The notes under the pieces were generated by a model, which was given only the letters and a program-made list of their open reading frames with translations, did not search any database and was not told the DNA's origin. Positions 4,151-55,077 of a DNA stretch of 64,000 bases are shown here, piece after piece. The stretch is taken from IMG/VR virus record IMGVR_UViG_3300023184_000037, positions 64,001-128,000 of that record. One strand, 5' to 3'. Within the stretch, counting starts at the first letter, position 1; every line of letters starts with the position of its first letter. A program made the position numbers and the translations under genes. The stretch is from a virus.

Positions 4151-4519
4151 ATGAAAACATTTTTAGATTACATAGCAGAACAGAACATAACTGAAAATGA
4201 GTTACAAGTACTAAACGAATCCCTTCAAACCGAATGGACCGAAGAACTTGAGGCTAAAGTTGACGCTGCTCTAGAACAATTTTCAAACACTTATAAGAAC
4301 GCTGACGGAACCTATAATATCCAAGCGTTCAATGAAGAGATTACTAATGAAGGAGTTTTAGGTAGTATCTTTGGAGGACTTGCAGGTTTTGCTCTTGGTA
4401 AAACTGTTGGAAAAACTATTGCCAATATCTTGGGAATCCAAAGTGGTATAATGTATGACATGTTAACCTCAAGACTAGTAGGAGCCGCTCTTGGTTCTTC
4501 TCTTGGTAGTAAATTATAA
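4151..4519 (+). CDS. Small protein with capsid-targeting-like N-terminus and Gly-rich hydrophobic C-terminus
   Basis: MKTFLDYIAE resembles T4 internal protein CTS MKTYQEFIAE; GSIFGGLAGFALG and LVGAALG segments. Confidence 0.5.
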   Translation: MKTFLDYIAEQNITENELQVLNESLQTEWTEELEAKVDAALEQFSNTYKNADGTYNIQAFNEEITNEGVLGSIFGGLAGFALGKTVGKTIANILGIQSGIMYDMLTSRLVGAALGSSLGSKL

Positions 4520-8190: not shown

Positions 8191-9699
8191 TTGATTTTAA
8201 CATTAACGGATGATAATCAATTTTTAAGAATTGATGAAGCAACCGAAATTGAGTTAGAGCAGATTAGAATCTCTCTGACCAAAAGAATAGAAAGCTGGAG
8301 GTTTCACCCTCTAGTTAAACGCGGAGTTTGGGATGGATACGTATCATATATTAAAGATGATAAATGGATTCCTGCCGGACTTTGGCGTCATGTTATGACA
8401 ATATGTAAAGAATACCGATACGAACTTAAAATCGAGGGTATTAAGAGGCTTATTGACTCCAATATTAATGCAGAACAGTTTGAGGTTTGGGCTACTGACT
8501 TCTTTAAGGGCTCACAGTTTACACCTCGTGACTATCAAATAGAAACTGCATATAACATTTTAAAATTTAGAAAGTGTCTAGCAGAGCTTGCAACTTCAGC
8601 AGGTAAGACACTGATTAGCTTCTTGACCGTCGCCTACATGCTTGAAAAGGGGCATGCTCAACGGATTCTTTTCATTGTACCAAATGTTTCATTGGTTGTT
8701 CAGGCCCATGAAGATTTCCATGAATATAATTATAAAAATAGAATTGACCTAAGAATCCAACAAATATTTGCAGGACAAGAGGTTAAAAAGAACAAAAATA
8801 TAATTATTGGGACCTATCAATCATTAATTAAGAAGGACGCTGCCTATTTTGCAGAGTTCGACGCTGTTATTGTAGATGAAACGCACAAAGCAAAAGGTGC
8901 CAGTATTAAGGAGATTCTTAGCAAGTGTGTTAATGCAAAATATAGGTTTGGACTTTCGGGTACAATACCAAAAGATGGTACACTTGACAAATTAACCCTA
9001 ATGAGCCAGACTGGCCCAGTTATTAGTGAAGTTAAGGCAAGTTTCTTACAAGAGCAGGGGCATATTGCACAATGTGTTGTTAAGGTTATTGAAATGAACT
9101 ATGCAACTCCAAAACAGCGAACAGCTTTCATGGAATTGGCCCAAAACAGATATGAAAATAAAGATGTGTTCTCATTAGAACAAAACTTTGTAATCACTAG
9201 CGATGCGCGACTTAATTTTATTTCAAATGTAATTGCAAGAGTTCCCAGGAACTCATTGGTGCTTTTCCATCGAATAGAACATGGACAAAGACTATATGAA
9301 AAGTTGAGACAAGAGAGCAACAAAAGGGTATTTTATGTCGATGGTGGAACTGCTTCAGAGATCCGAGAGGAATATAAAAAGAAGATGGAGGCTGGAGAGG
9401 AAATTGTAATTGTTGCAAGTTTCGGAACCTTCTCTACAGGTATATCAATCAAGAAAATTCACAACATATTTTTTACCGAATCTTTTAAATCAGAGGTAAT
9501 TATTAGACAATCAATTGGACGTGGACTTCGACAACACGCATCAAAAGACAAAGTATTGATTGTTGATTTTGTAGATGATATTAGAACACTCGAATGGGAT
9601 AACTATTTATACAAGCATGGAAAGGTACGCCAATCTATTTATAAACAAGAGAAATTTGAATACACTGTAAAGAAAGTGGATTTTGATGGGGATATATAA
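8191..9699 (+). CDS. uvsW: SF2 DNA helicase UvsW
   Basis: PRDYQ, ATSAGKT, VDETH, GLSGT, QSIGRGLR. Confidence 0.92.
   Translation: MILTLTDDNQFLRIDEATEIELEQIRISLTKRIESWRFHPLVKRGVWDGYVSYIKDDKWIPAGLWRHVMTICKEYRYELKIEGIKRLIDSNINAEQFEVWATDFFKGSQFTPRDYQIETAYNILKFRKCLAELATSAGKTLISFLTVAYMLEKGHAQRILFIVPNVSLVVQAHEDFHEYNYKNRIDLRIQQIFAGQEVKKNKNIIIGTYQSLIKKDAAYFAEFDAVIVDETHKAKGASIKEILSKCVNAKYRFGLSGTIPKDGTLDKLTLMSQTGPVISEVKASFLQEQGHIAQCVVKVIEMNYATPKQRTAFMELAQNRYENKDVFSLEQNFVITSDARLNFISNVIARVPRNSLVLFHRIEHGQRLYEKLRQESNKRVFYVDGGTASEIREEYKKKMEAGEEIVIVASFGTFSTGISIKKIHNIFFTESFKSEVIIRQSIGRGLRQHASKDKVLIVDFVDDIRTLEWDNYLYKHGKVRQSIYKQEKFEYTVKKVDFDGDI
9691..9699 (+). promoter_or_regulatory. Putative late promoter GATATATAA
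   Basis: Recurs upstream of genes at 5284, 17301, 22718, 25081, 31595, 36669, 38836, 48443, 53125, 55397, 57086; variants at 47600, 51113, 62456. Confidence 0.75.
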
Positions 9700-9732: not shown

Positions 9733-12700
9733 ATGGCACAAGTAAATAAAATTTCTTCATTTAAGAGTTTTACTGAAGTTAAGAATCAGGAGGCTACGAT
9801 GAAATTAAGAGAAACTAACAATGCAAAAAGACAGGAAACTGTTGGTAAAATTGGAGCAATCCTTGACGAAATGGGGTTAACATCTCTATCTGAGTTAGAT
9901 GAAGAGAAAAAACAAGCACTAATTAACAAAATGTTTGGAAACGTTTCAGAAGATGAAGCAGACGATATTGAAGATGAACTTAATAAATTAGGAGAACCTA
10001 AAAAACTAGAAGAGAGAAATGCATTCTTAGGCGCAAGAGCAAAAGCTATTGAGGAAGAGAAAAATGAATTTGAGTTTAACGGTAAAACATATAAAGTAAC
10101 AGTAAACGAAGGTAATGCCTTTGGAGATGCTGTAAGAAAAGCAAAAGAAGACGGTAAAAAAGAATTTGAATTCGACGGTAAAACTTATAAAGTTGAGGAA
10201 GGTAATGCCTTTGGAGATGCTGTAAGAAAAGCAAAAGAGGCTGGAGAGAAAGAATTTGAATTTGATGGTAAAACTTACAAAGTTGAAGAGTCTATCGATG
10301 AGGCTAAAAGAACCAAATTCACTGGTAAAACTGCTCATGATTTATACACTCAAACTGGTGGAAAACCATTCGAAGTGTTCGTTAAAAACGACTGGTACTC
10401 AGTTAACCCAGAAGAATTAAAAGATGACAAAGATACTTATTTTACTGGTTATACTAGAGATGGTTCTGATTATGAATTCGATCTTAAAGATATCGACTTT
10501 ATACAAGAATCTTTAAATGAAGGTCGTGTTAAAGCAGCTACCCTACTTCAAGAATTAATTGATGGAAATACTTCTAGAGCAGAAGGTATTAAAATGTCAA
10601 AAGACCTTGCTGAACATTATTTATATTGGTTAAGAACTTCACCTTACGGTAAGAAAAATGCTGACCTACCTCTTTACATGTTAATCAAAGCAAGTTTTGT
10701 TTGGGGAATTGAAAGACAATTAGACCCTAAATTAAAAGTAGAACTTGAAGCACTAAAAGGTAGTATTAAAGAATCAGCAGATTTTATTACTGAGGCTCGT
10801 TCAATTAATAAAATCCAATATGACTGGTCTAAACTGACAACTACAATGGCTGCAACTGCACAAAATTGGAAAACTGCAGAAGGACCTGCTAAAGAAATGT
10901 TACTTGGAAAATTAAAAGAGATGACTGCTCAAAAGAAAGCTCTAGAAGCTGAATTGGATGCTGCTATTGCTGACAAAGACAAAGACATCGAATTGGTAGT
11001 TTCTGAAGCATTCTTTAGATTACCAAAAGACGTTATTGGTAACGAATTATACTTAGCAACTCAAAATTTATCTAACCTATATGGTAGAACTTTAGCTGGA
11101 AATGATATTGATGCCGGAGTTATTGATACTGTTATTAAAGCCCTAAACACTGTTAAAAAATCTATTAAGAAATTTAATAACAAAGAAGAGGTTTTAGGAA
11201 CTGTTTACGAAGCTAAAGCAAAAGACTTAAAACCAAACCACAAATACACATCAGACTATGGTGAAGTTACATTCATCAAATTAAATCCTGATGGTAAAAC
11301 TATGAAGTTGCATTCAAAAGAAACTGGAGAAATCAAAACCGACATTTCAAATGCATACAACATGGAATTAATTGAATCAGTTGTTAATGAAGGAGATATG
11401 ACTAAACACTATGATGGTTTTATTCTATTAGACCAAAAAGGAAAAAAGACATATAAGTTTAAATACGTTAAAGGAACTAGTAATGTTAATGTTGAAAATG
11501 CAGCTATTGACAAGTTAGTAAAAGCAACTGGAGAACCAAGAGCAAATTTCATGGTTCATGGTTTTATTAAAAAAGGTGAATGGGATAAAAATAACATTAG
11601 TGTATTTGAATCTTTAAATGAAGGAAGCGCTAAACAATTTGATGTTGACTTTAACAATATGGTTAGAAACATTAAATCTGGTTATGGTTGGATCGATCCA
11701 GAATACGTAGCAGATACTTGGGAAAATTCAAGTGACTCTATCGATTTTGAATTAGTTAAAGGAGAAATCTACAAAAGATTAATTGCTGCTAAATTATTAG
11801 CCTACGCTGATGACGAAGATGAAGAAGCAGCAGGACAATATGTTAAATCATTAAAAGAACTTGGAATTAAAGAATCTTTTATTAATGAGGCAGAAAAATT
11901 TAAAAGCACTCAAGATTTTGAAGAGTTCTTAGAGGAAATTGATGGTATGCCAGAGCATAGAATCAAAAGAATCATGGGTAAAGATTACATCGATACTCCA
12001 GGAGGTTTCAGAGATGAAGCAGATGATTACGATAATGACATTGTAGAGTATACTCTTTCTAACATGGGTCGTAAAGATTTTGAAGCACTTAAAGCATGGT
12101 GGGAAAACAATGTTCAAGAATCTTTAAATGAGGCTGAAGTAAAATCTGACGATGAATTTAAAGAATATGCAATGACTGTTTTGAAAAAAGCATTTGGAGA
12201 TGACTTTGATGAAGCAAAAGCAACTGAAGTTATTGATGGAATTCTTGGAAAATGTGGCGATGATTACGGAGCTGCAGTTGGAATGATAACAAGTTCTCTT
12301 GGAGAATCAGTAGTTACTGAAGGCATTTGGCCTAAGTCTAAATTAGCTAGTTCATTTCAGTTTAAATTAGCAGACGAACTTAAACAAAATTTTAAAGGAG
12401 TATTCTATAGTATAGGTAATGATTTATACCATAATGATGAAAAAGTATACTCAATCGATGGAGATAAAGATAGTATAGACTCTATAATTTCAAAACTTAA
12501 AAAAACTATTGATGAATCAGTAGTTACTGAAGGTTTTGATGCAAACTACTGGGAAGATTATCAAGAAGGAGCTCAAAAAACGAAAAACCCAACTGCTATG
12601 GTAATCATGCAAGACGTACAAGCTGCCGTTGAAGAGTGGAATGAGAATAATGAAGTTGGACCTGAAAATGAAGTAACACCGGCCGGAGAAAAGAAAGTCT

Positions 12701-12783
12701 TAAAATTAGCAAAAGAATTTGTTAAAGCAAAAGGTTGGATTTCATTCGATATTATCGATGCAATGATCGCTCAGGAATCTTAA
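9733..12783 (+). CDS. Modular putative internal head polyprotein (1016 aa) with repeated protease-site linkers
   Basis: Late promoter; KISSFKSF tag; linkers ESIDE, QESLNE x2, ESVVNE, FESLNE, KESFINE, ESVVTE x2. Confidence 0.6.
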   Translation: MAQVNKISSFKSFTEVKNQEATMKLRETNNAKRQETVGKIGAILDEMGLTSLSELDEEKKQALINKMFGNVSEDEADDIEDELNKLGEPKKLEERNAFLGARAKAIEEEKNEFEFNGKTYKVTVNEGNAFGDAVRKAKEDGKKEFEFDGKTYKVEEGNAFGDAVRKAKEAGEKEFEFDGKTYKVEESIDEAKRTKFTGKTAHDLYTQTGGKPFEVFVKNDWYSVNPEELKDDKDTYFTGYTRDGSDYEFDLKDIDFIQESLNEGRVKAATLLQELIDGNTSRAEGIKMSKDLAEHYLYWLRTSPYGKKNADLPLYMLIKASFVWGIERQLDPKLKVELEALKGSIKESADFITEARSINKIQYDWSKLTTTMAATAQNWKTAEGPAKEMLLGKLKEMTAQKKALEAELDAAIADKDKDIELVVSEAFFRLPKDVIGNELYLATQNLSNLYGRTLAGNDIDAGVIDTVIKALNTVKKSIKKFNNKEEVLGTVYEAKAKDLKPNHKYTSDYGEVTFIKLNPDGKTMKLHSKETGEIKTDISNAYNMELIESVVNEGDMTKHYDGFILLDQKGKKTYKFKYVKGTSNVNVENAAIDKLVKATGEPRANFMVHGFIKKGEWDKNNISVFESLNEGSAKQFDVDFNNMVRNIKSGYGWIDPEYVADTWENSSDSIDFELVKGEIYKRLIAAKLLAYADDEDEEAAGQYVKSLKELGIKESFINEAEKFKSTQDFEEFLEEIDGMPEHRIKRIMGKDYIDTPGGFRDEADDYDNDIVEYTLSNMGRKDFEALKAWWENNVQESLNEAEVKSDDEFKEYAMTVLKKAFGDDFDEAKATEVIDGILGKCGDDYGAAVGMITSSLGESVVTEGIWPKSKLASSFQFKLADELKQNFKGVFYSIGNDLYHNDEKVYSIDGDKDSIDSIISKLKKTIDESVVTEGFDANYWEDYQEGAQKTKNPTAMVIMQDVQAAVEEWNENNEVGPENEVTPAGEKKVLKLAKEFVKAKGWISFDIIDAMIAQES
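10015..10290 (+). repeat. Three ~30-aa repeats (GNAFGDAVRKAKE.G.KEFEFDGKTYKV), 90-bp period
   Basis: Near-identical units start at 10111 and 10201; diverged copy near 10015. Confidence 0.9.
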
Positions 12784-12847: not shown

Positions 12848-13120
12848 ATGAAACACATTAACCTATTTGAAGACTTCTTAAATGAATCTGATTATGCAGA
12901 AGCAAGGGCTGACCTTTCACTAAAGGCATCTGATCTACTTGCAAAAAGAAAGGAACTTAGAAATAAAGTTAATGACCTTAACCAAAAAGTGGATGACCCA
13001 AAATCTGCAATTCAAGCCCAAATAGCAACCCTTAAAATGCAGGCTCTGGACCTTGATAATCAAAAAATTAGAATTAACGCAAATATACTTGATTTAAGTA
13101 AAAAATTAGAAAGTTTATAA
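12848..13120 (+). CDS. Tagged small coiled-coil protein
   Basis: Start reassigned to ATG 12848 giving MKHINLFEDFLNE. Confidence 0.7.
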   Translation: MKHINLFEDFLNESDYAEARADLSLKASDLLAKRKELRNKVNDLNQKVDDPKSAIQAQIATLKMQALDLDNQKIRINANILDLSKKLESL

Positions 13121-13122
13121 CT

Positions 13123-13671
13123 ATGAAACACATCCAACTATTCGAACAATTTATTAACGAAGGAAAAAATGACTACGTTAAATATGTAAAAGACGCATCA
13201 AAGAAAATATTTGCACGTGGTGGTAACGGTCAAAATGTACTTGATTATCTAACAGAACTAGGAAAATATATTGATAGCACTATTGACCCAAAGGCAGACA
13301 AATGGTATGGTCCACAAACACCATCACTCTTCCAAGAACTAGTTAATAGTATGGGAATTGATGATATCGAACATAACAATGTTTCCGGTGTAAAAAGCAG
13401 CAAAAAACCAGAAGCTTTTAGAGGTGCTAGCGATTTAATCGCTGTTACCAATGATGCGATCAAACGCGCTAAAACTAATGGAGGAAATGACACTGGATGG
13501 GGTAAAGCCGCATTAGAACTTGCTGGACACCTTCAAGCTTATAAAGTAGGCGCTGGTAATCCAGGTCCTGGAGAAGACGGATTTTATACTGCTCCAACCT
13601 TAAGTACATTTACAAGATTGGTTGATGATATTGCAATGGAAAATATTAAAAAGAATAGAGTAGCTCAATAA
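13123..13671 (+). CDS. Tagged hypothetical protein with internal duplication
   Basis: MKHIQLFEQFINE; two similar halves each containing GGN and (P/T)xxF..LV.. Confidence 0.7.
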   Translation: MKHIQLFEQFINEGKNDYVKYVKDASKKIFARGGNGQNVLDYLTELGKYIDSTIDPKADKWYGPQTPSLFQELVNSMGIDDIEHNNVSGVKSSKKPEAFRGASDLIAVTNDAIKRAKTNGGNDTGWGKAALELAGHLQAYKVGAGNPGPGEDGFYTAPTLSTFTRLVDDIAMENIKKNRVAQ

Positions 13672-13678
13672 TTAAAAT

Positions 13679-14968
13679 ATGAAAACAAGAATCCTTAATT
13701 TTAATCAATTCATAACCGAAAGGTATGAAGTTAAATTAAATGAGCAATTGTTATTAGAGGGTGGAGCCGCTGGACACATGTCCCATCCATTCGATAATAA
13801 TGACCTAACATTTGGAGACTTCAAGAATATGATTATTGGTGGACTTCAAGGTGAACTAAACTTTGAAGAGGAACCTACTGAAAAAACAGACGGTCAAAAC
13901 GTTTTTGCAACTATTCAAAATGGTGAAGTTAAATTTGCCAGAAATAAAACTGAGTTGCAAAACCCTATGAGTCTTAAGGATTTCCAAAATAAATTTGAGG
14001 GACATGCTAGTAAACTAGTACAAGATACTTTCCAATTTGCAGCCGCTGATTTAGCAACCCTACTTGTAAAGTTACCTGCAAAAACGCAAGAGGAAGTGTT
14101 CCAGAATGGGCTGAACTTCATGAACATGGAGTTGATATATTCTGCTAACCCTAACGTAATTCACTATGACGTTGATGTAATTCAATTCCATGGCATTAAG
14201 AAGACTGATGGTGCTGGAAATATAGTTGGAGATGACAATAGTGCGGCAAAAAGTGTTAGTGGAGTACTTAAATCACTAAACGCTGATGTTGGAAGTACAT
14301 TTACAATAATTCCCCCACAAGTTATTAAACTACAAAAAGATATAAATTTTGAAGAGAATCAAACTAAATTCTTAGGAAAGCTTGATGCTCTTAAAAATCG
14401 TTATAATTTAACCGATGCCGATGCAGTTGCACGATACCATGAAATGTGGTGGAGAGAGCAAATTGATGCAACATTCGGTGATTTACCACAAAATATTAAA
14501 GAAGGACTATTATTAAGATGGGCCTATGATGATAAAAAAACCTTAAATCTTCGTTCATTAGACAAAGAGTTAACTAAAGAACAATCTGAAGCTGTTAAGA
14601 AATTTGACAAAGAGGATGTTAAAAAGAAATTCAAAGAAAACATTCGACCATTTGAAGACCTTTTCTTAGAATTGGGAAGTGTTATCTTAAAGAATGCTAG
14701 TAATTTTGTTGCTGCTTCTCCAGATAAAGAAATGCAAAGATTGCATACTGAAATCAGAACTGAAGCTGACAAAATTAAACTTAATGGAGACCTTACTCAA
14801 ATTGACAAAGTCGCAAAAGAACTTGACCGATTAGAGAGAATTGGAGGAATCCAGTCTATTATACCGACTGAAGGTATTGTATTCTCATACAAAGGACACA
14901 TGTACAAATTAACAGGAACATTCGCTGCTATTAATCAGTTGATGGGAATTATAAAATATGGAAGATAA
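13679..14968 (+). CDS. Ligase-like nucleotidyltransferase of T4-like phages (DUF6267-like)
   Basis: EGGAAGHMSHPFD, motif I TEKTDGQN, EGIVF, YKLTG; tag RILNFNQFITE. Confidence 0.6.
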   Translation: MKTRILNFNQFITERYEVKLNEQLLLEGGAAGHMSHPFDNNDLTFGDFKNMIIGGLQGELNFEEEPTEKTDGQNVFATIQNGEVKFARNKTELQNPMSLKDFQNKFEGHASKLVQDTFQFAAADLATLLVKLPAKTQEEVFQNGLNFMNMELIYSANPNVIHYDVDVIQFHGIKKTDGAGNIVGDDNSAAKSVSGVLKSLNADVGSTFTIIPPQVIKLQKDINFEENQTKFLGKLDALKNRYNLTDADAVARYHEMWWREQIDATFGDLPQNIKEGLLLRWAYDDKKTLNLRSLDKELTKEQSEAVKKFDKEDVKKKFKENIRPFEDLFLELGSVILKNASNFVAASPDKEMQRLHTEIRTEADKIKLNGDLTQIDKVAKELDRLERIGGIQSIIPTEGIVFSYKGHMYKLTGTFAAINQLMGIIKYGR

Positions 14969-14969
14969 A

Positions 14970-15422
14970 ATGAAACATATAAAACTGTTTGAACAATTTA
15001 TTAATGAATCAACAATTAATAACTTTAAACCTGAAGTATTAAAGAAATCTAATTCATTAGATGAAACATTCTTTAAGAAATTAATGCCACTTACCGCCAA
15101 AACTACCGATACTGCAATGGAATGGATCTGGGATTTTGAAGGAGAAACTATGTTTGTTCATTTCCAATATTTTGAAGTTAAACCACTTGGCAATATTATC
15201 GATACTCCAAAATACAGAATACATAATGCACAGTATTGGTTGAATGATACCCAATTAGCGCTACAAGGTAAAAGAGGTGAAGAGGTTAATGTAACCAAAT
15301 TATCATTTACTGATATAACAGACCCTAAAAAAGAGAAATCTTTAGGTTCGATTTGGGTTGATACTAAAGTTTATTTAGACGAGCAAAGAAGAGTATTTGA
15401 AGTAACAAAAAGTTCATCATAA
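14970..15422 (+). CDS. Tagged hypothetical protein
   Basis: Start reassigned to ATG 14970 giving MKHIKLFEQFINE. Confidence 0.7.
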   Translation: MKHIKLFEQFINESTINNFKPEVLKKSNSLDETFFKKLMPLTAKTTDTAMEWIWDFEGETMFVHFQYFEVKPLGNIIDTPKYRIHNAQYWLNDTQLALQGKRGEEVNVTKLSFTDITDPKKEKSLGSIWVDTKVYLDEQRRVFEVTKSSS

Positions 15423-15437
15423 TTAAAAAACAAAGAG

Positions 15438-17309
15438 ATGGCATTACAAAAATTAAGAGAGTATTTTAACGAAACCAATAGAGAAACTTTTATTGATATG
15501 TTAAAAAATAGAGTGTTAGTAACTGAGAAAGTTGCAGCACCTACATTTCTTGTTAAAAGAAATCTTGATGGGTTTGAATATTTTAAATCTTCAAATTCAG
15601 AAAAATTAAATCTAGTTGACAGAACTATTATCTCCTTATATGAGATTGCAATCAACTATATGCAGAGTTTACCAAGCTCTACTAAAAACCAAATGCCACT
15701 TGATTGGAGATTTGGATTTGAATATCTACCGGAAGTTAATGTATCTAAAATTAAATACGGAAAGACTCCAAAGAATAATTTAATCTTAACGCACATCCAG
15801 CAAATGGGAGAAGGCGATAAAGTTAAGAAAACAATAAATGACCCAGTTATTCTAAATAAATGGGCAAAAATTCTTGATGTACAACAACCAAGCGTAATTT
15901 TTGATGGCTATTTATCTCAATTACAAAGAGATGAACTTCTTGAATTACTTGGAATGAGCGATAGAGAATTTAGTGAATCATTTGACTATTTACAAGAAAC
16001 AAAAGACAAGGTTAGTTTTACCAGTAAAGTAGTTAAACTTTTTAATCCAAATGCCTTTGAAACCGCCTTAAATGCTGATATTGAAGACGAATTTGACGGA
16101 TTAGTTGTTAATTTTATCGACGAAAAATCAATAAAGTCTTTTAAATTAGAGGATTTTATCAGAAAAGGGGTTGTTGATAACTCTTCGAGCCACATGTATC
16201 AAATTGCAGTTACTGACTTCTTAGAATTTGCAACTCAATTTAATATCGACGAAATCCAATTAGAAGACGAGAGAGCAGATTATCGATATCTAGAAATAAT
16301 GTCAATAATGTTTAATGAATATGTTGACAAAAATTCCTCAAAATATATTGGAGTTAATTTTGAAAGCGCTGAATTTTCATCAGCACAATCTTTTAAATTA
16401 AACTCAAAATATATTACTAATGAAAAGACACTAAAATTTGTTTCAAATGACATTTTAGCAGAACTACTTAAAATGATTTTAGGTTCTTTTAGAAAGAAAA
16501 GAACTAAAACTAGCGATTTAATAGATGATGACACTATGGCACGTCTAAATGAAATTATCGAAAAAATCAACAAGAAAATATTTGTTGAAAGTACTGATGA
16601 GAATGCAATATATGATTACCAAAATTTTATGTTGCGCGATAAAATTAAATCTTCAGTTAACTTAAATGAGGCGCTTAAGCTGACTCATGTTGAACAAGGA
16701 AAACAACCAGTAAATATGTTTGTTGGACGATTCCAACCGTTTACATTAGGACATGCTAAAGTTTTAGAGACTATTCATAAAGAAAATGGCTACCCAGTAG
16801 TTGTATTCCTTGTTAAAGCAAAAACCCAAAAGAAGGGCGATGAATTTAGCAGACCATACGACGAAAAGACGCAAATTGAAATGTTCAAAAACGTTCAAAA
16901 GCAATATACATTCCTTAAAGAGATATTTGTAATTCCAACTGGAGGTATTGATATTATGTTTAATGAAATGAGACCTAAATATGAACCAGTACTTTGGGGA
17001 ACAGGAAGTGATAGAATGACAAGTTATGGTTATCAAGTTAATAATGATGCGTATAGAGACCAATTAAACTGTAGAGCTGATTTTGGACTTTTTGAAATTC
17101 CTAGAAACGACGATGATATTTCGGCTACTGCGGTTAGAAATGCCCTATTAGCAGGAGATGAGAAACAATTTCAGAATTTAACACCAAAGGCAGTTCATGG
17201 AATGTATGGTGAACTTAAATCTAAAATTGAAGATTCAATGGGAGTAGTTGCTGAAGGATTTACCAATGAAATTATGACATTCGAACAATTTATTAACAAA
17301 GATATATAA
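15438..17309 (+). CDS. Degenerate ligase-like domain fused to cytidylyltransferase-like (HxGH family) domain
   Basis: VTEKVAAPTF, FDGLVV, SFKL in N-half; GRFQPFTLGH, GSDR, ISATAVR in C-half; C-terminal IMTFEQFINK tag. Confidence 0.65.
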   Translation: MALQKLREYFNETNRETFIDMLKNRVLVTEKVAAPTFLVKRNLDGFEYFKSSNSEKLNLVDRTIISLYEIAINYMQSLPSSTKNQMPLDWRFGFEYLPEVNVSKIKYGKTPKNNLILTHIQQMGEGDKVKKTINDPVILNKWAKILDVQQPSVIFDGYLSQLQRDELLELLGMSDREFSESFDYLQETKDKVSFTSKVVKLFNPNAFETALNADIEDEFDGLVVNFIDEKSIKSFKLEDFIRKGVVDNSSSHMYQIAVTDFLEFATQFNIDEIQLEDERADYRYLEIMSIMFNEYVDKNSSKYIGVNFESAEFSSAQSFKLNSKYITNEKTLKFVSNDILAELLKMILGSFRKKRTKTSDLIDDDTMARLNEIIEKINKKIFVESTDENAIYDYQNFMLRDKIKSSVNLNEALKLTHVEQGKQPVNMFVGRFQPFTLGHAKVLETIHKENGYPVVVFLVKAKTQKKGDEFSRPYDEKTQIEMFKNVQKQYTFLKEIFVIPTGGIDIMFNEMRPKYEPVLWGTGSDRMTSYGYQVNNDAYRDQLNCRADFGLFEIPRNDDDISATAVRNALLAGDEKQFQNLTPKAVHGMYGELKSKIEDSMGVVAEGFTNEIMTFEQFINKDI

Positions 17310-17333
17310 AACATAAATAAATATAGAAATCCT

Positions 17334-19673
17334 ATGAATTTTAATGAATTCCTAAATGAAGGTAGTACTTCAACTTATGGTGGACCTGCTGGACTTACCA
17401 AAGATGAGACGTTTAAAATTGCTCAAAAATTTGCAGATGCTGCCGCTAGTGTTGACCCTGAAAAAGGAAAATGGGGTGTAAACAAAAGAACCTTAGAAGA
17501 GGATGGGTTTGACCTAGACTACAATGATGTGGAATTTGACGGTGGTTCATATAACATTTACAAAAATGGTAATGTTGTAAATATGGCTCTTCGTGAAAAT
17601 CCAGTTTTAGGTAAAATAGGAGACGATATTAAAACTATTGCAAAAGGTTTTAAAAAGATGATGGCAAATGAATCTGCTACAAACGAGGCTAATCTAGTTC
17701 TAGGGTTATCAACTAACAATTATCCTGCTGGAACAATTGCAAGATATCGTATAGAATCCTCTGTAATTAACCTAAGAAAAGTTGCTGATTTATCAAAAGA
17801 CTCATGGAAAAAATATTCAAGAGCATTTGCTGATGATGAAATTGGTTTTGAAAAATCAAGCGATAGAAAAGAGGCATTAGATGCTATTCAAAAATCATTC
17901 GATAATGGTAAAAATGACATTAGAGAATTTGGTTTAAATGAATCAGTAGTTAATGAAACTGGATTTAAAAAATCTGACATTAAAAAAACTATCGACTTTA
18001 TTAATAAAGAAATTGGAATAGATCCAGGATATGCTCTAATTGGAGATGAAGACGATATTGAAGAATTTGACAAACTTTGGGATCGTGGTGATTATGAAGA
18101 TGCATTTGACTTTTTAACAGTTGCAACAAACATGGAAATTTCAACATTTGCCGATGTTAAAGATGCTCTTAAAGAATCAGTAGTTAACGAAAGAAATATC
18201 ACTATCAAAAGACAATACACTGATAAAAGTCCTGCAGTTACTGTAGGTAAAGCTGCTAAAATTCGTAACAGAATGCTAGAGGCTATTAAAGATGGTAAAG
18301 TTTCACAAGAAGATTTTAATAATATTCTTAAAGAAATGACTACAGATTCTAAAAGATGGTTGAGAAGAAATGCTCAGTGTTTTAATGTATCTGAGGATGG
18401 AATTACCCTATCAAAAACAGGTTCTAGAATCCTTAAAAATATTATGGTTTCTGAAGCCACTACAAAGGCCCCAAAGATTTGGGTTCCTGGAGGATTTGAT
18501 AAAGAAATTTCAAAATACCCAAATAGTAAAATTACCAGAAAAATTGTATTAGATGCGGCACTTAAATGGGATGTTAATCCAGAAGATGCTATCAAGTATG
18601 TTGAATTTGGTTGGGTTGTTGACTTAGACGAAAATAAAAATAACAACGATATGAACACAAAATTTATTTACGAGTCTTTCGCAGATTTCGTTGCAAACAA
18701 ATTAAATGAAAATACATTAAACGAGGCATTTAAAAGTACTAAACTTTCTAACTTGTTCTCAGTAGGAAGCGCGGGTACTAAAGACCTTGCAGGAGCATTC
18801 TATAATTTCTCAAAACTAGCACTTGACCAAATCGAGGATTATGACATTATTGAAATGGACCCTCAAACTGCACGTAAAGAAAAAAGAGCAAATGCAATTT
18901 ACTTCTATATAGTAACTAATCAAAAAGTAAATCCATATATTGAAGGTAGTAATCCAAGCACTTACAATAATGGAATTATCCAATCAAATACTCTATTAGC
19001 AATGACCAATGGACAAAATGAATGGTACTCAACATCATATAATAATTATACAAAAGGAGAAACGATAAAAGTTGCAAAATCAAGAGAAGATGCAGCAGGT
19101 TTCGATAAAAGAGACAGTAAAAGATATGATGGTTCGGGAATTACATCTCTTACTAAAGTAGCTGAATTGGCTGATACTGCGTATGTTATTGACTTAGACG
19201 TTCTTAAAGCAAGATATTCTACATCATCATTAACATTTAAAAGAGCTGAAGATAAACGTGGAGCTACTGCTTTCCAAAGCGACAAAGACTTTAAAGCGGC
19301 AAACAAAGCACGTTATAATGAAATCTTAGCACAAAAAGCAGTTGCAATGCCAATCGATGAAGTAGTATTAGGAGCTATTGATACTCTTGCTACTCAAATT
19401 AAAGATGCTCTATCTGCGGGACAAAAGGGAAGATATGGAGAACTTATTATCGGACTAGACCCTAAAAATAGAGAAATCAAAATGAGTGATGCTTCTAATT
19501 TAATGAGAAATATCCTTGATGAGTACAATAGATATGTTGGATATGTTGTTGATGCTGAAAAAGAAGTTGCAACTGGATATAGTGGAAAATTCTACGAAGG
19601 TAGACTAAAAGAAAGTGCTAAAACAATAACAGATTACGTTAAGAAAGTAGACGCTAAAAATTACGCTTGGTAA
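17334..19673 (+). CDS. Second modular putative internal head polyprotein (779 aa)
   Basis: Late promoter 17301; MNFNEFLNE; linkers NESATNE, NESVVNE, KESVVNE, MVSE, LNENTLNE. Confidence 0.6.
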   Translation: MNFNEFLNEGSTSTYGGPAGLTKDETFKIAQKFADAAASVDPEKGKWGVNKRTLEEDGFDLDYNDVEFDGGSYNIYKNGNVVNMALRENPVLGKIGDDIKTIAKGFKKMMANESATNEANLVLGLSTNNYPAGTIARYRIESSVINLRKVADLSKDSWKKYSRAFADDEIGFEKSSDRKEALDAIQKSFDNGKNDIREFGLNESVVNETGFKKSDIKKTIDFINKEIGIDPGYALIGDEDDIEEFDKLWDRGDYEDAFDFLTVATNMEISTFADVKDALKESVVNERNITIKRQYTDKSPAVTVGKAAKIRNRMLEAIKDGKVSQEDFNNILKEMTTDSKRWLRRNAQCFNVSEDGITLSKTGSRILKNIMVSEATTKAPKIWVPGGFDKEISKYPNSKITRKIVLDAALKWDVNPEDAIKYVEFGWVVDLDENKNNNDMNTKFIYESFADFVANKLNENTLNEAFKSTKLSNLFSVGSAGTKDLAGAFYNFSKLALDQIEDYDIIEMDPQTARKEKRANAIYFYIVTNQKVNPYIEGSNPSTYNNGIIQSNTLLAMTNGQNEWYSTSYNNYTKGETIKVAKSREDAAGFDKRDSKRYDGSGITSLTKVAELADTAYVIDLDVLKARYSTSSLTFKRAEDKRGATAFQSDKDFKAANKARYNEILAQKAVAMPIDEVVLGAIDTLATQIKDALSAGQKGRYGELIIGLDPKNREIKMSDASNLMRNILDEYNRYVGYVVDAEKEVATGYSGKFYEGRLKESAKTITDYVKKVDAKNYAW

Positions 19674-19674
19674 A

Positions 19675-20280
19675 ATGAAACACATTAAACTATTTGAGCA
19701 GTTTGTTGCTGAAGGAAAATCAGATGCTTTTCCGGAATACAACAATGGATATGCTCCTGGAGATTATAAATACATGAAAGAAATGAAATCTCTTCTTTCT
19801 AAAATTAAGGGAATTTCTGAGTATGACGATATGGACTCAACTACCCATGTTTATATAAAATCTGCTCCTGGAAATAGTGGTGTTGATTTAACTAAAGACA
19901 TTCAAAAGGTTCTTAAAGGATTTGATGGTAATCTAGATTTAGATAATATTACTAGTAACATCGGTAAACCTGGAGAAACTAGTCCTAATGACCAGCAAAA
20001 AGGAATTGTTACCTATAAAATTGCTAAAAAAATTGATTGGTGGACACTTAAAAGAGCAGCAGGAAAAGAAAAACCTAGCACTGAAACCGTTTTAACTGAC
20101 GATATTATTTCTGGAATTTTAGATAGAATGGCCCAAGTTTCAACGACTCAACATGAATTAGCAGACGTTCAATGGACTTCTTTAGAAGATTTACTTAGAG
20201 CAGCAGAAGACCACATGACTGCGACTAATTATAAGAAATTTTATAAAGAAATCAAGGCAAAATATCCTAAAATGAAATAA
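19675..20280 (+). CDS. Tagged hypothetical protein
   Basis: MKHIKLFEQFVAE. Confidence 0.7.
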   Translation: MKHIKLFEQFVAEGKSDAFPEYNNGYAPGDYKYMKEMKSLLSKIKGISEYDDMDSTTHVYIKSAPGNSGVDLTKDIQKVLKGFDGNLDLDNITSNIGKPGETSPNDQQKGIVTYKIAKKIDWWTLKRAAGKEKPSTETVLTDDIISGILDRMAQVSTTQHELADVQWTSLEDLLRAAEDHMTATNYKKFYKEIKAKYPKMK

Positions 20281-20281
20281 G

Positions 20282-20782
20282 ATGAAACATATTAAACTAT
20301 ACGAACAATTTGTAAATGAAGCAGCCGCGGTAAAAGTTACCCTGACTCCTGATTTATTCGATGATAAAAACTCTACTTGGGGTATGTACCAAGATTTAAA
20401 AGATACAGGGTGTTCTACATGGAAAATCAACTGTAATTTATTAGCAGATTCTGATGATGATATTATCATAGGAGAACGTAATGTTGTTATGTTTTCAGTT
20501 AGTGTATGGGATGATGGTGAAGCAGTTGCTAAAATCGGAACTACAAACTCTCTTAAAAGAGAACCTTCTGGAACTTTTGGTAAGAATTTCACATTTAATG
20601 TTGAAGATTTTAAAGCCAATTCAAAGAAACTTTCTACCGAAATTGCAGATTTCTTAGTAGACAAAGAACACTTTAATTGGATTAATAAGAGCATCACATC
20701 AAATAGAACACCTCTTAAAATAACTCCTAAAGGAGATTTTAGTCAGGTAATCGAAAAACTAATAGAAGCAGCGATTAAATAA
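20282..20782 (+). CDS. Tagged hypothetical protein
   Basis: MKHIKLYEQFVNE. Confidence 0.7.
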   Translation: MKHIKLYEQFVNEAAAVKVTLTPDLFDDKNSTWGMYQDLKDTGCSTWKINCNLLADSDDDIIIGERNVVMFSVSVWDDGEAVAKIGTTNSLKREPSGTFGKNFTFNVEDFKANSKKLSTEIADFLVDKEHFNWINKSITSNRTPLKITPKGDFSQVIEKLIEAAIK

Positions 20783-20795
20783 TAAGATAAACGAC

Positions 20796-21128
20796 ATGAA
20801 AAAATTAAAACAATACGAGGAATTTATCAATGAATCATTACTTATTGAAGAGTATAAATTATATGAAAAAAAGTATACACCTCAAGAGAGAAAAGAATTA
20901 GAAAAAAATGGAGAAGCAATGCCAGGCGGTAGGTTTCCTATTAAAGATTTAACTGATTTAAGAAATGCAATTCACTATTTAGGAAAGAACGTTGCAAAAG
21001 ACGGTGCAGATGTTGCTAAGTTTATTGCAAAAAGAATGAAAGAATTAGATGGATTAAAATATACTGACATGTTTTCATCAGCCCTAAAAAATTCAAAGTT
21101 AGGCGATGAAAAACAATATTTAGCATAA
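20796..21128 (+). CDS. Tagged small protein, DUF6582-like
   Basis: MKKLKQYEEFINE; TPQERKEL...AMPGGRFPI...LRNAI. Confidence 0.6.
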   Translation: MKKLKQYEEFINESLLIEEYKLYEKKYTPQERKELEKNGEAMPGGRFPIKDLTDLRNAIHYLGKNVAKDGADVAKFIAKRMKELDGLKYTDMFSSALKNSKLGDEKQYLA

Positions 21129-51144: not shown

Positions 51145-52734
51145 ATGGCAGGATTTGTACAAAGAAATGGTCCATTGACTAAGCGACCGTTTAACCTAAG
51201 TAGTACCCTTAAGAAGTTATCTTCTTTTGGTATGTACTACGACGATTTGGTTCTTAGACAATCTCAAGCAATTGGGCCAGTAGAAGATGAAATTGGTTAC
51301 GGCCAAATGAACCCAACTGGGCTTGATAGTGATGACATGTATGGCGCGTTTGCAGCCCTTTCGATGGCTGATACTACAATGCGTAAAAATATTCCATTCT
51401 TTGACCAAGCATATCGTGGTAAAAGAGACGAATTACGATCATTTGCGCAGCATGATGAGATTGAAGACATATTAGATATACTTTGTGATGAATCGATAGT
51501 ATATGACAGTAAAAACTTCATAGCAAATCCAGAGATTATTGGAATGGAAGTTTCTGAAGATGTTCAAAAATATCTTAATAAAGCATATAGAGACCTTTAC
51601 CAATATTTTGGATTTAACCTAGACCAATCAGCATGGTACTTCTTTAGAAAATGGTTAATTGATGGTTATCTTGCATTTGAGATTATTTATAATCCTGAAA
51701 TGACTGAAGTTATTGGATTTAAAGAAATTGACCCAATCACATTAGTACCAGGTTATAACCATGAAGATGGTAAAAAAGTTTGGATTCAGTTTAAAGACGA
51801 TCCAGTTAAACAAAGAAAATTGTATGATGCACAAATTGTGTACATATCATATTCTTCGATTACTACCGCATCAAGGGTTTCTTACCTTGAAAGACTTGTA
51901 AGAGCATTCAACTTAATGAGAATTATGGAGCATACCAGAGTTATTTGGGCTGTTACAAATTCATCTTATAGAATGAAATTTATTATACCAGTCGGTGGTA
52001 AATCTAAAACAAGAGCAAAACAATCGCTTGCTCAGTTAATGAATAACTATAAAGAAGTTGTTGATTTTGATTGGGATAGTGCATCCCTTACAACTAACGG
52101 TAAACCAATGTTACAATTTAACAAAGAATATTGGTTACCTAGTAAAGACGGAGAGCAACCTGAGATTGAAACCCTTGGTGGTGATGGTCCAGAACTTAGT
52201 GACACAGAATCATTAAAATATTTCTCAGATAAACTTAAAGCAGTTTCAAAAATTCCTTACAATAGATTCATGTATGAAGATGGTGGAGGAGATTTCAATC
52301 TAGCAGCCGATGGTATGATTAGAGATGAGATTAAATTTGCTAAGTTCATTAATCGTTTACGTAGTTCATTCCAAGAGATATTGATTAAACCATTATGGCT
52401 TCAAATGTGTCTTAAATTTCCAGAATTTAAAGAGGACGCAGGATTTAGAACTCAAATTGCATTGAGATTTAACGAAGATAATATGTTCGCTGAATTAAAG
52501 ACAATGGAAATTATGCAAAAGAGACTTGAGTTTATTGGTTCAATGAAAGACTCGTTATCTACAACAAATCCAGTAACTATGGAAGAAACTCCATACTTTG
52601 ACCTTGAATTCTTGGTTGATAGATACCTTAAACTTTCTCCAGATGATAAAGCAGCTAATGATGCTTATAAAGCCCGAAATGATGCTAAAAAAGCAGCCGA
52701 ACCGGAAGAGGAAAATCCAATGATGGGAATGTAA
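51145..52734 (+). CDS. gp20: Portal protein (T4 gp20-like)
   Basis: FRKWLIDG, SYLERL, YWLP, EIETLGG, KIPYNR, RDEIKFAKFINRLR. Confidence 0.92.
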   Translation: MAGFVQRNGPLTKRPFNLSSTLKKLSSFGMYYDDLVLRQSQAIGPVEDEIGYGQMNPTGLDSDDMYGAFAALSMADTTMRKNIPFFDQAYRGKRDELRSFAQHDEIEDILDILCDESIVYDSKNFIANPEIIGMEVSEDVQKYLNKAYRDLYQYFGFNLDQSAWYFFRKWLIDGYLAFEIIYNPEMTEVIGFKEIDPITLVPGYNHEDGKKVWIQFKDDPVKQRKLYDAQIVYISYSSITTASRVSYLERLVRAFNLMRIMEHTRVIWAVTNSSYRMKFIIPVGGKSKTRAKQSLAQLMNNYKEVVDFDWDSASLTTNGKPMLQFNKEYWLPSKDGEQPEIETLGGDGPELSDTESLKYFSDKLKAVSKIPYNRFMYEDGGGDFNLAADGMIRDEIKFAKFINRLRSSFQEILIKPLWLQMCLKFPEFKEDAGFRTQIALRFNEDNMFAELKTMEIMQKRLEFIGSMKDSLSTTNPVTMEETPYFDLEFLVDRYLKLSPDDKAANDAYKARNDAKKAAEPEEENPMMGM

Positions 52735-53157: not shown

Positions 53158-55077
53158 ATGACTAATAACTTACTGATCTTAGAAAGATCGTCAACGGAAT
53201 TAGAGTTTAAACAAGAAGGTGGGACTTATGTTCTAGAGGGTATCTTTGGAGAAATCGATAAGAAAAATCGTAATAACCGAATCTATACTGAATCTGAATA
53301 CTTACCTCAAATTGAAGCTCTTCAAGCAAAAATTAAATCATCTAAACTTTTAGGTGAATTAGACCATCCGCAAACATTTGATGTTTCATTAAAAAATGTT
53401 TCCCACATTATTGAAGAACTTACGTATGACAATAATACAAAACAGGTTAAAGGACGTATCAGATTATTAGATACTGATGCTGGAAGACAGGCAAAAGCTC
53501 TTGTAGATGCTGGTGTTCCTCTTCAAATTTCAAGTAGAGCAGCTGGAGCAGTTGAATCTAATGGAACTGTAAAAATCAAACAATTATTTACTTATGATTT
53601 AGTAGCAGACCCTGGGTTTGAGAACGCTGAATTAAAAAGAGTTAATGAAGCCTATGGCTTTGTTAATGAAGGAAACGACTTATTTATTTACGAGATAAAT
53701 AAAGAAAACGAAAAACAACCAATCGAAAATATAAACGAAACAAAAATGGCAGAGTCTAAATTTATTACGGTTGAGGATTTTAATAAATACTCTAAATATC
53801 TTTCTGAAGAAATCAAATCTATTAAAGAAGGTATGAATTCTTTAACAGAAGCAGAGTCTACTAGTTCTCAATTAGGAACCCTAAAAGAATACACTGATTA
53901 TTTAGCTAAGAAATTAGAGGAATCAATCGCATATTCTGAACACATTGCTGAAAAAGCAGACCAAGGTATACAATATGCAGAAAATCTTGCAGAAAAAGTT
54001 GACCAAGGTATTCAATATTCTGAGCATATCGCTGAAAGCGTTGATGCTATCAAAAATTACACTAACTATTTAGCTGAATCTTACAATGAAGGTTCAACTT
54101 CTTACGAGAACTTAATTAAATATACTGAATATTTAAGAGAGAACTTAGAGAAAGTAACTGAATATGCTGAGTACGTTGCAGAAACTGTAAATAGTAATCT
54201 ATTATTAGAAGACGAAGCAGGAATCCCAGCTGAAGACTTAAAAGATGATTCTAAAAATGTTTCTCCAGAAGTAGTTGATGCTGATGGTAATGTAATTACT
54301 GGAAAACCAGAAGATGTTGAAGGTGAATTAAAACTTAAAGGTAAAGGAGCCGCTGGAGTTGAAGTTACTGAAGCAAAAGATGGATCTGAAGCAGGTTTAC
54401 CAGCTGAAGACCTTAAAGACGGTACTAAAGATGTTTCTCCTAAAGTAGTTGATGCTGACGGTAACGTAATCACTGGAACTCCAGAAGATGTAGAAAAGAA
54501 TTTAGAACTTGCTGGTAAAGGTGATGCCGCTGGTAAACAAGTTGATGCAATGGAGGCTTACAAAAATTCAATCACTTCTAAATTAGAAGCATTAGTTGAA
54601 AGTGTAAATGCTAAAAAATCAGATAACCCAACATTCTTTAAATTTATCTCTGAAGAGAAGGTAAATGAATTTAATGCCCTATCTACTGAAGATAAAACTA
54701 AAGTTGTAAGTGCAGTTGAAGGTAGAGGTTACCTAACAGAAGGACAAATATTAGCTCTATGGAATACTTCATTAAATGGAACTATAGAAACTCATGATGC
54801 ACCTGCAGTTATTAAATTAATGCCAACTGAATACCATGATACTTGGGCTAAATGTTCTGAAGGTAAGAAAAACCAAATCTTAGCACAGTCTAAATATCAC
54901 AAAGTTGAAACAGCTTACCAAGTTGCAAACTTCTGGCAAACTAGAGACCTTAGAGAGGTTGCTCCAGTAATGGAAAAAATCACTATGGTAAATGAATCAG
55001 CAGTTGAACCAACACAAACATTAGGTTATGATGCTACTGAATTAGGTGCAGAAATTGCAAAAAGATTCGCTAGATAA
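53158..55077 (+). CDS. gp21: Prohead protease (gp21-like) fused to scaffold/core protein (gp22-like)
   Basis: KNRNNRIY, GELDHP, VSHII, ISSRAAG, YDLVADPG; then YxEYxAE repeats; in-frame ATG at 53746. Confidence 0.88.
   Translation: MTNNLLILERSSTELEFKQEGGTYVLEGIFGEIDKKNRNNRIYTESEYLPQIEALQAKIKSSKLLGELDHPQTFDVSLKNVSHIIEELTYDNNTKQVKGRIRLLDTDAGRQAKALVDAGVPLQISSRAAGAVESNGTVKIKQLFTYDLVADPGFENAELKRVNEAYGFVNEGNDLFIYEINKENEKQPIENINETKMAESKFITVEDFNKYSKYLSEEIKSIKEGMNSLTEAESTSSQLGTLKEYTDYLAKKLEESIAYSEHIAEKADQGIQYAENLAEKVDQGIQYSEHIAESVDAIKNYTNYLAESYNEGSTSYENLIKYTEYLRENLEKVTEYAEYVAETVNSNLLLEDEAGIPAEDLKDDSKNVSPEVVDADGNVITGKPEDVEGELKLKGKGAAGVEVTEAKDGSEAGLPAEDLKDGTKDVSPKVVDADGNVITGTPEDVEKNLELAGKGDAAGKQVDAMEAYKNSITSKLEALVESVNAKKSDNPTFFKFISEEKVNEFNALSTEDKTKVVSAVEGRGYLTEGQILALWNTSLNGTIETHDAPAVIKLMPTEYHDTWAKCSEGKKNQILAQSKYHKVETAYQVANFWQTRDLREVAPVMEKITMVNESAVEPTQTLGYDATELGAEIAKRFAR
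54214..54534 (+). repeat. Tandem ~58-aa duplication (174-bp period) in scaffold region
   Basis: EAGIPAEDLKD...VVDADGNVITG.PEDVE twice, at 54214 and 54388. Confidence 0.85.

Follow-up and report, generated by a model that had tools for sequence, protein, structure and literature searches.

We analysed a 64,000-nucleotide (nt) stretch of viral DNA, referred to below as the window, which covers bases 64001-128000 of a 145-kb viral contig (IMG/VR record IMGVR_UViG_3300023184_000037). It contains an open reading frame (ORF) of 1016 amino acids (aa) in which a series of small modules is separated by near-identical short joints. Comparison with related viruses shows that modules are exchanged at these joints, while the gene itself remains at a fixed locus. 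In our interpretation the gene probably encodes a capsid-cargo polyprotein: a single tag would serve a dozen cargos that are cut apart by the prohead protease, and the module set would be editable in frame. The phage is an uncultured T4-like virus. As CheckV rates the 145-kb contig as 46% complete, its genome probably amounts to ~300 kb.

The protein (P0001) consists of an N-terminal tag, 12 modules (M1 to M12, 60-175 aa) and 11 joints. The original prediction had divided the ORF at eleven linkers; all of these are there, with ends at residues 190, 263, 354, 425, 493, 553, 630, 719, 800, 863 and 933. The layout is as follows (the arrow in peptides marks a known or predicted cut; fractions refer to 184 homologs).

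9733-12783, plus strand: polyprotein ORF (P0001), 1016 aa, open frame
9733-9777, plus strand: N-terminal tag, residues 1-15, ending S-F-T-E↓V; putative capsid-targeting sequence
9778-10302, plus strand: M1, residues 16-190; N-terminal head domain (conserved), followed by three helix-hairpin repeats of 30 aa each
10303-10521, plus strand: M2, residues 191-263; beta-rich, in 31/184
10522-10794, plus strand: M3, residues 264-354; helical
10795-11007, plus strand: M4, residues 355-425; helical hairpin
11008-11211, plus strand: M5, residues 426-493
11212-11391, plus strand: M6, residues 494-553; optional (37/184), poorly modelled
11392-11622, plus strand: M7, residues 554-630; alpha/beta, optional (21/184)
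11623-11889, plus strand: M8, residues 631-719; at many different positions in homologs
11890-12132, plus strand: M9, residues 720-800; ahead of M7/M8 in P0002 and P0003
12133-12321, plus strand: M10, residues 801-863; three-helix, the most conserved module (159/184)
12322-12531, plus strand: M11, residues 864-933; 210-nt cassette between perfect 20-nt direct repeats
12532-12780, plus strand: M12, residues 934-1016; C-terminal in all homologs, with an invariant end

M1 takes the first place in all homologs. Its hairpin repeats (DNA 10005-10280) each end in V-x-E↓G/S, and their copy number differs among homologs. At the other end, an invariant A-M-I-A-Q-E-S closes the polyprotein (12757-12780) as well as many short relatives; the chain stops one residue past a hydrophobic-x-Glu, as if M12 had retained the first residue of a joint.

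Module exchange at a fixed locus

A search for the polyprotein family yielded 584 homologs (E ≤ 1e-3) among the scored candidates, and an exhaustive search gave 1306 clusters at 50% identity. The closest homologs, P0002-P0004 (up to 97% identity), were compared as protein. Counting the 12 P0001 modules alone, 77 architectures are found among the 184 proteins of at least 550 aa. M2, M6, M7 and M11 are each without a counterpart in most homologs and other modules are inserted, the same joint bounding every extra module. The order changes as well: M7-M8-M9 in P0001 becomes M9-M7-M8 in P0002, and M9-M8 or M8-M7 elsewhere. Segmentation of 264 proteins at the joints resulted in ~48 module families that recur at least three times, typically 55-100 aa in length, nearly all with at most one copy per protein. 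The original prediction had suggested that modules could be gained, lost or shuffled in frame at the linkers, in which case colinear orthologs lacking insertions or deletions there are not to be expected. The orthologs are indeed not colinear, and gain, loss and reordering are all seen with breakpoints at the joints.

The positions of the breakpoints were evaluated at both the protein and the DNA level. Of 652 matches between modules and homologs, 97% span 93% or more of the module when P0001 is divided at the joints; in a control with the cuts moved by 15-35 residues, the corresponding share is only 32-52%. Internal ends of blastn alignments fall at most 3 residues from a joint in 54% of 95 cases (7% at random positions), and adjacent alignments overlap inside the linker. 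An earlier breakpoint test, based on the ends of protein all-against-all alignments together with a strict regular expression, had given a weak enrichment only; this expression detects ~5 sites per protein on average, and the test was replaced by the shifted-cut control and the DNA comparison.

The genomic position of the gene is stable. We compared 29 related viral loci, 25 of which include the upstream flank, and in all 25 the gene lies between uvsW and o429. Nine loci (L003-L010 and L015) encode primase, UvsW and downstream proteins that are 95-98% identical to those of the window (~91-93% in DNA); in these same loci the polyprotein gene measures 2475-3225 nt and carries differing module sets. 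The clearest single exchange event concerns M11, which is present in 2 of the 264 proteins. In relatives without this module, a single copy of the linker aligns with the repeats on both sides of M11; at locus L004, the two alignments share 25 nt of the L004 sequence. That the breakpoints fall at the joints would be explained by recombination via the linker DNA.

The linkers are also conserved as DNA. The repeats reported in the original prediction could be reproduced exactly: the 14-mer GAATCTTTAAATGA occurs three times in the window, at 10507-10520, 11608-11621 and 12118-12131 on the plus strand (0 expected), and a perfect 20-mer is found at 12304-12323 and 12514-12533 (plus strand), where it flanks a module of 70 codons (residues 864-933). 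The former corresponds to an E-S-L-N-E type linker, the latter to an E-S-V-V-T-E-G type linker. Inexact copies of the 20-mer are located at 11374-11393 (2 mismatches) and, in another ORF, at 17940 and 18174 (3 mismatches each). Based on codon usage alone, the chance of three identical E-S-L-N-E codings is ~0.006 and that of two identical E-S-V-V-T-E-G codings ~0.02; the DNA identity of the linkers therefore exceeds what peptide constraint and codon bias account for. A similar tendency is seen in 21 distinct genes, although these are related, so that the counts are not independent samples: AGY serine codons are used for 0 of 95 linker serines, compared to 20% elsewhere in the same genes, and the dominant codon sets are GAA TCA GTA GTT A(A/C)T GAA (15/24) and GAA TCT TTA AAT GAA (8/9). 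This pattern fits linkers that are copies of one another, spread or homogenised by recombination.

Joint peptides, tags and the encoded protease

The consensus of the joint is E-S-V-V-N/T-E↓A/G. For a sequence logo we used 458 non-identical contexts of module starts, which were defined by BLAST matches of the modules and not by the motif. Glu is found at P1 in 94%, Val, Ile or Leu at P3 in 89%, Asn or Thr at P2 in 72% and Ala or Gly at P1' in 87% of the contexts; Ser at P5 (52%) and Glu at P6 (63%) are less strict. A position weight matrix built from the homologs only, with P0001 left out, recovers 11 joints in P0001, against a mean of 0.5 and a maximum of 3 in shuffled copies of the same composition (200 trials). 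Among 137 other ORFs of the contig, the one at 17334-19673 has 5 matches and all others have at most 2.

T4 gp21 and its relatives in giant phages cleave after Glu at a three-residue motif (PMC5694885, PMC9026906). The sequence of T4 gp22 contains strings that are near-identical to the joints (G-T-V-F-E↓A, E-S-T-I-T-E↓S and N-F-V-T-E↓A). In T4, gp22 is cut many times by gp21. The original prediction had assigned the joints to such a protease, and they do look like gp21-type sites: they fit the hydrophobic-x-Glu rule, equal the ends of the tags discussed below, and sit in dips that are predicted to be flexible. We infer that the gp21-type protease encoded by the phage cleaves them.

Other features of the window that bear on this interpretation are:

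9691-9699, plus strand: GATATATAA motif, 41 nt upstream of the polyprotein start codon; candidate late promoter
12848-21128, plus strand: cluster of ~nine tagged ORFs directly downstream of the polyprotein (starts at 12848, 13123, 13679, 14970, 15438, 17334, 19675, 20282 and 20796)
51145-52734: portal gene, ~40 kb downstream of the polyprotein gene
53158-55077, plus strand: prohead protease of the T4 gp21 type (Peptidase_S77), first ~200 residues of a 639-aa ORF
55514-57016: major capsid protein gene, ~40 kb downstream of the polyprotein gene

The assignment of the protease is based on several matches. Its ORF scores 46.6 bits with Pfam PF03420, which is over the cut-off, and E 9e-43 with phrog_207. 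An alignment to T4 gp21 (PDB 5jbl, E 7e-5) brings the LGEL-x-H-P and S-S-R motifs into register, and the protease has the residues that correspond to the gp21 motifs bearing His and Ser. This S77 protease is the presumed enzyme cutting the polyprotein. In its last ~440 residues the same ORF has helical heptad-like repeats and an internally duplicated section; this part may be a scaffold fused to the protease. Following the capsid gene, the ORF at 57121-58404 has a tag-like start and tandem repeats of the T-P-P-A-T-D-D-K and E-K-E-A-R-E-K-K-E-K-E-A type, making it a candidate core or scaffold protein. For the major capsid protein, we also considered that its initial M-A-N-L-I-N-E↓A-E-I might be a maturation site homologous to F-L-T-E↓A-E-I of T4 gp23. 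This was dropped; because the alignment places the entire N-terminus on the T4 propeptide, the main cut probably lies near residue 45.

In T4, the internal proteins IPII and IPIII start with M-K-T-Y-Q-E-F-I-A-E↓A, and residues 4 and 7 of the tag serve targeting, residues 8 and 10 processing; Asp instead of Glu at P1 prevents processing in T4 (PMC9026906). The polyprotein likewise has a short N-terminal peptide that ends in hydrophobic-x-Glu, with a putative role in targeting. It shares the spacing I-x-x-F-x-x-F-x-E with the canonical tags of the genome, and its residues 1-15 are kept even where the UvsW of relatives is only 74% identical. We also inspected the N-terminus of every plus-strand ORF: apart from the polyprotein, the contig has at least 11 ORFs that begin with M-K-H-I-x-L-F-E-x-F-x-N-E or a close variant, against 0 in five shuffled genomes. 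These tags end in F-[ILV]-N-E↓[GAS], which is the same site as in the joints, and the joint matrix derived from the homologs scores them too. Outside the cluster, a 122-aa ORF at 4151-4519 starts with M-K-T-F-L-D-Y-I-A-E, a pattern nearly identical to the T4 IPII/IPIII tag.

Modules also occur separately behind such tags. Small complete homologs consist of a canonical tag directly followed by a module: M3 in P0218 and P0158, M9 in P0239 and P0252, M8 in P0228 and M5 in P0246. In these small homologs the module begins, right after the tag, at the very residue that follows the joint in the polyprotein. Since the same modules stand behind tags and joints, a joint occupies the position of a tag end and the modules occupy that of a mature internal protein. 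Two tagged ORFs of the downstream cluster show the same relationship. The one at 13123-13671 (o13123, 182 aa) holds two tandem copies of a module that is internal to the polyproteins P0092, P0048 and P0150. The other (orf779, 17334-19673, 779 aa) has the tag M-N-F-N-E-F-L-N-E↓G, ~four linker-bounded N-terminal modules that recur within polyproteins of other phages (P0187, P0160, P0176 and P0247), and then a large C-terminal domain. As a whole the cluster looks like an internal-protein locus, several ORFs of which are variable or missing in close relatives. A third member, the 623-aa ORF at 15438-17309, combines a tag-like start with a C-terminal cytidylyltransferase-like domain (PF01467) and may be a packaged enzyme; similar 'cytidyltransferase-like' proteins from uncultured phages are present in BFVD.

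Structure prediction agrees with separately folded modules. An AlphaFold2 model of the polyprotein (65 sequences) has a mean predicted local distance difference test score (pLDDT) of 64 and a predicted template modelling score (pTM) of 0.23; given this low pTM, there is apparently no fixed arrangement among the modules. All predicted joints (126, 156, 190, 263, 354, 425, 493, 553, 630, 719, 800, 863 and 933) are located in segments with pLDDT < 50, forming low-confidence dips between the domains; those at 126 and 156 lie between the 30-aa repeats of M1. The tag (residues 1-15) is below 50 as well. For seven modules (M2, M3, M4, M8, M9, M10 and M12) the model attains a pLDDT of roughly 70-90, and M12 modelled alone reaches pLDDT 92 and pTM 0.83. 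We further considered that the modules might be diverged copies of a single repeat. This was ruled out with hhalign: of 55 module pairs only M1-M4, both helical, are related and all others have a probability < 13%, so the modules are different domains.

Database searches reveal little about these domains. No Pfam or PHROG match above threshold was obtained for the whole protein, ten separate modules or 70 diverse homologs; the best PHROG match is a weak one of M8 to phrog_24292, a 'head protein' (E 0.04). There was no match of the polyprotein with tblastn against 50,697 phage records or in a PDB search by sequence, and no usable match of M8 in an ESM Atlas feature search. With the full model, the Foldseek alignments to PDB and BFVD entries were all long and without meaning (template modelling score about 0.06), and the VIA matches were confined to the helical hairpin of M4, a generic fold (Z up to 9). 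With M12 alone, the best Foldseek hit has E 0.9 and the best VIA hit Z 5.8; the PDB match is unconvincing, which is no demonstration that the fold is new.

Directly upstream of the polyprotein ORF lie the genes for gp32, primase and UvsW. The best likeness of UvsW (55%) is to that of an uncultured phage of 462 kb. The candidate promoter GATATATAA has 13 copies in the window versus 1.5 expected. It is also found upstream of the protease, major capsid, orf779 and orf427 genes, and a G-less variant precedes the portal gene. In many ORFs, including the protease gene, the distance is 25-40 nt; for the major capsid gene it is ~110 nt. The motif differs from the T4 late promoter TATAAATA, which is not enriched in the window (12 versus 9.3 expected). 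Promoter activity of GATATATAA is suggested by its placement, and co-regulation of the polyprotein with the head genes is plausible.

Proposed mechanism and competing explanations

We propose the following course of events. The polyprotein would probably be made late, from the GATATATAA-type promoter that it has in common with the head genes. The 15-residue tag and the head domain of M1 would then bring the chain into the core of the assembling prohead, like the targeting sequence of the T4 internal proteins. There the gp21-type prohead protease would cut past the Glu of each E-S-V-V-N/T-E↓A/G joint, possibly with a second cut after the hydrophobic-x-Glu just ahead of the Ser, which would free a pentapeptide. 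One translation product with a single tag would thereby give some 12-15 separate proteins, each between 3.5 and 12 kDa in size. Judged from the sequences, we consider it likely that the polyprotein is both packaged and cleaved. The modules would be unrelated, independently folding domains drawn from a large common pool that also supplies single tagged genes. Because the joints share nearly the same 14-20 nt, joint-to-joint recombination is proposed to edit the modules in frame while restoring the cut site.

Once released, the modules would most likely act like T4 Ip1-3, which travel inside the head and enter the cell along with the DNA to counter host defences. T4 Ip1, Ip2 and Ip3 are injected inhibitors, each of a distinct GmrSD restriction enzyme (PMC12373910). 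By analogy, the modules may be injected counter-defence proteins, although this is the weakest part of our interpretation. The whole polyprotein, a chain of 113 kDa, has an isoelectric point of 4.8 and most modules are acidic; several are strongly acidic, as are DNA-mimic anti-restriction proteins, and a link between the two is speculation. More tentatively still, and with a chance that we put below even, each joint might be a protease site and a DNA recombination site at the same time. Together with the shared tag, the joints would then make the modules integron-like in-frame cassettes, through which T4-like phages re-assort injected proteins drawn from a pool of dozens of undescribed small domains, many of them new defence inhibitors.

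A competing explanation for the multiple cut sites is a sacrificial core or scaffold like T4 gp22, gp67 and gp68, which is packaged and then cut so that the pieces exit and make room for DNA. In that case the modules would have no role once the head is assembled. The joints resemble the sites of T4 gp22 and many cuts are expected. Like gp22 and gp67 the polyprotein is acidic, and a gp22 homolog was not identified elsewhere in the window. We nonetheless regard a scaffold as unlikely: a protein that determines head size would not be expected to be hypervariable in module content at loci whose flanking proteins share 95-98% identity. Moreover, the modules form separate folded domains (7-10 kDa) rather than coiled coils, they also exist as individually tagged small genes, and the polyprotein gene is not part of the head cluster. 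Better candidates for this role are the repeat-rich ORF at 57121-58404 and the 440 residues by which the protease ORF is extended.

It might also be argued that the chain acts uncut, as beads on a string. The joints would then be flexible connectors and in-frame recombination hot spots, and their likeness to protease sites incidental. Polyvalent phage proteins that act uncut do exist, such as the N4 virion RNA polymerase (PMC5512222), and the conservation of the linker DNA goes beyond the need of the peptide. Against this, the joint equals the tag end of single-module proteins, where a connector is needless. The preference for Glu at P1 and Ala/Gly at P1' (94% and 87%) is a constraint typical of a cut site and unneeded in a flexible connector, and a matching protease is encoded by the same contig, which makes an uncut chain improbable. 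Finally, cutting could be performed by another protease (ClpP or a host enzyme) or outside the capsid, the modules acting in the producing cell. The placement of the gene among replication genes would suit this. ClpP, however, does not act as an endoprotease with site specificity, and the motif agrees with the gp21 family and its specificity for Glu. The tags at the N-termini are capsid-targeting sequences of the T4 type, and the upstream GATATATAA motif is common to the portal, protease and capsid genes. We therefore hold this last explanation to be very improbable.

Several observations nevertheless weigh against a packaged and cleaved cargo polyprotein. Replication genes surround the gene, and the head cluster is 40 kb away; the ip genes of T4 likewise lie outside the head cluster. 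The tag of the polyprotein is not of the canonical type of the genome, and the promoter candidate is merely an enriched motif. As the modules are mostly acidic and the T4 internal proteins basic, retention beside the packed DNA is not obvious. No module resembles a known anti-defence family in the Pfam and PHROG scans. In the close relative L004 (6001-9225), a single in-frame TAG replaces a Trp codon in M4 and the remainder is in frame. A sequencing error, a nonsense allele and a split gene are all conceivable causes; given this stop, the full chain may be dispensable. With relatives that are ~8% diverged in DNA, individual exchange events are not recent enough to show the mechanism.

If the polyprotein is packaged and cut, tailed phages have a polyprotein strategy, whereby one gene, one promoter and one tag provide a dozen proteins in equal amounts, and the cargo set can be edited through simple in-frame recombination. 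The T4 internal-protein model, which covers a few single genes, would then be broadened to a combinatorial system of large size. The pool of small orphan domains would offer good candidates for new anti-defence or host-takeover proteins, and the tag together with the joint would provide a sequence rule to find virion cargo in uncultured phages. It would also suggest a natural design for loading several cargos in T4-type capsids.

Comparison with known systems

In full-text literature searches we found no paper describing such phage polyproteins. The closest known system is the capsid targeting sequence of T4 with its internal proteins. As in T4 IPI, IPII, IPIII and Alt (PMC9026906, PMC3012670, PMC12373910), we find a short tag ending in hydrophobic-x-Glu and a gp21-type protease. 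The parts are small (about 8-20 kDa in T4), mutually unrelated and highly variable, and their genes lie outside the head cluster. Differences are nonetheless pronounced: T4 uses one gene and one tag per cargo, whereas here 12 or more cargos form one chain behind one tag, the cut site is repeated at each joint (11 or more internal sites), and the modules are mostly acidic and not basic. No sequence similarity between the modules and any T4 Ip was found.

At the sequence level the polyprotein also resembles T4 gp22, gp67 and gp68, which carry several gp21-type sites per protein with very similar site sequences. These are conserved assembly proteins, however, whose fragments are mostly expelled, in contrast to a shuffled array of folded domains. 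Furthermore, the polyprotein gene is hypervariable and lies 40 kb upstream, and is thus not a conserved colinear gene beside protease and capsid. Inner-body and ejection proteins of phiKZ, 201phi2-1 and SPN3US are comparable in that a gp21-related protease cuts after Glu, in some of them at multiple sites, and phiKZ-type giant phages eject a large protein mass (PMC5694885, PMC7411985). In those phages the extra cuts fall within long propeptides, each gene yields one mature protein and the motif is S/A/G-x-E; arrays of interchangeable modules are not described for their head proteins.

Polyvalent proteins of phages and conjugative elements (Iyer et al. 2017, PMC5512222) share the many domains (up to 15 in their case) and the mosaic architectures; they have been proposed to be delivered together with the DNA, after which proteolysis would set the domains free (PMC5512222). 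Their domains are recognisable enzymatic or DNA-binding ones related to conflict, often accompanied by a peptidase domain of their own, whereas no Pfam family is found here and release would need the repeated sites for a separate prohead protease. Polyproteins of RNA viruses and retroviruses offer a further parallel: one translation product, a viral protease and repeated short sites, cleavage in our case being predicted. Theirs is a fixed essential set rather than a variable cargo array, and there is no evolutionary link.

With respect to exchange, the joints are similar to the PeSL cassettes and the glycine-rich motifs of gp38 in T4-type phages (PMC2839356, PMC4122927, PMC3157838), and to integron cassettes: in each, short conserved DNA flanks variable modules and exchanges take place there. 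Recombination in T4 needs less than 50 bp of homology (PMC2839356). Whereas gp38 motifs keep a fixed order, the order of modules changes here; and whereas PeSLs are intergenic promoter-terminator elements of about 100 bp, the element in the polyprotein gene comprises 14-20 nt of coding sequence, in frame, that encodes the predicted cut site.

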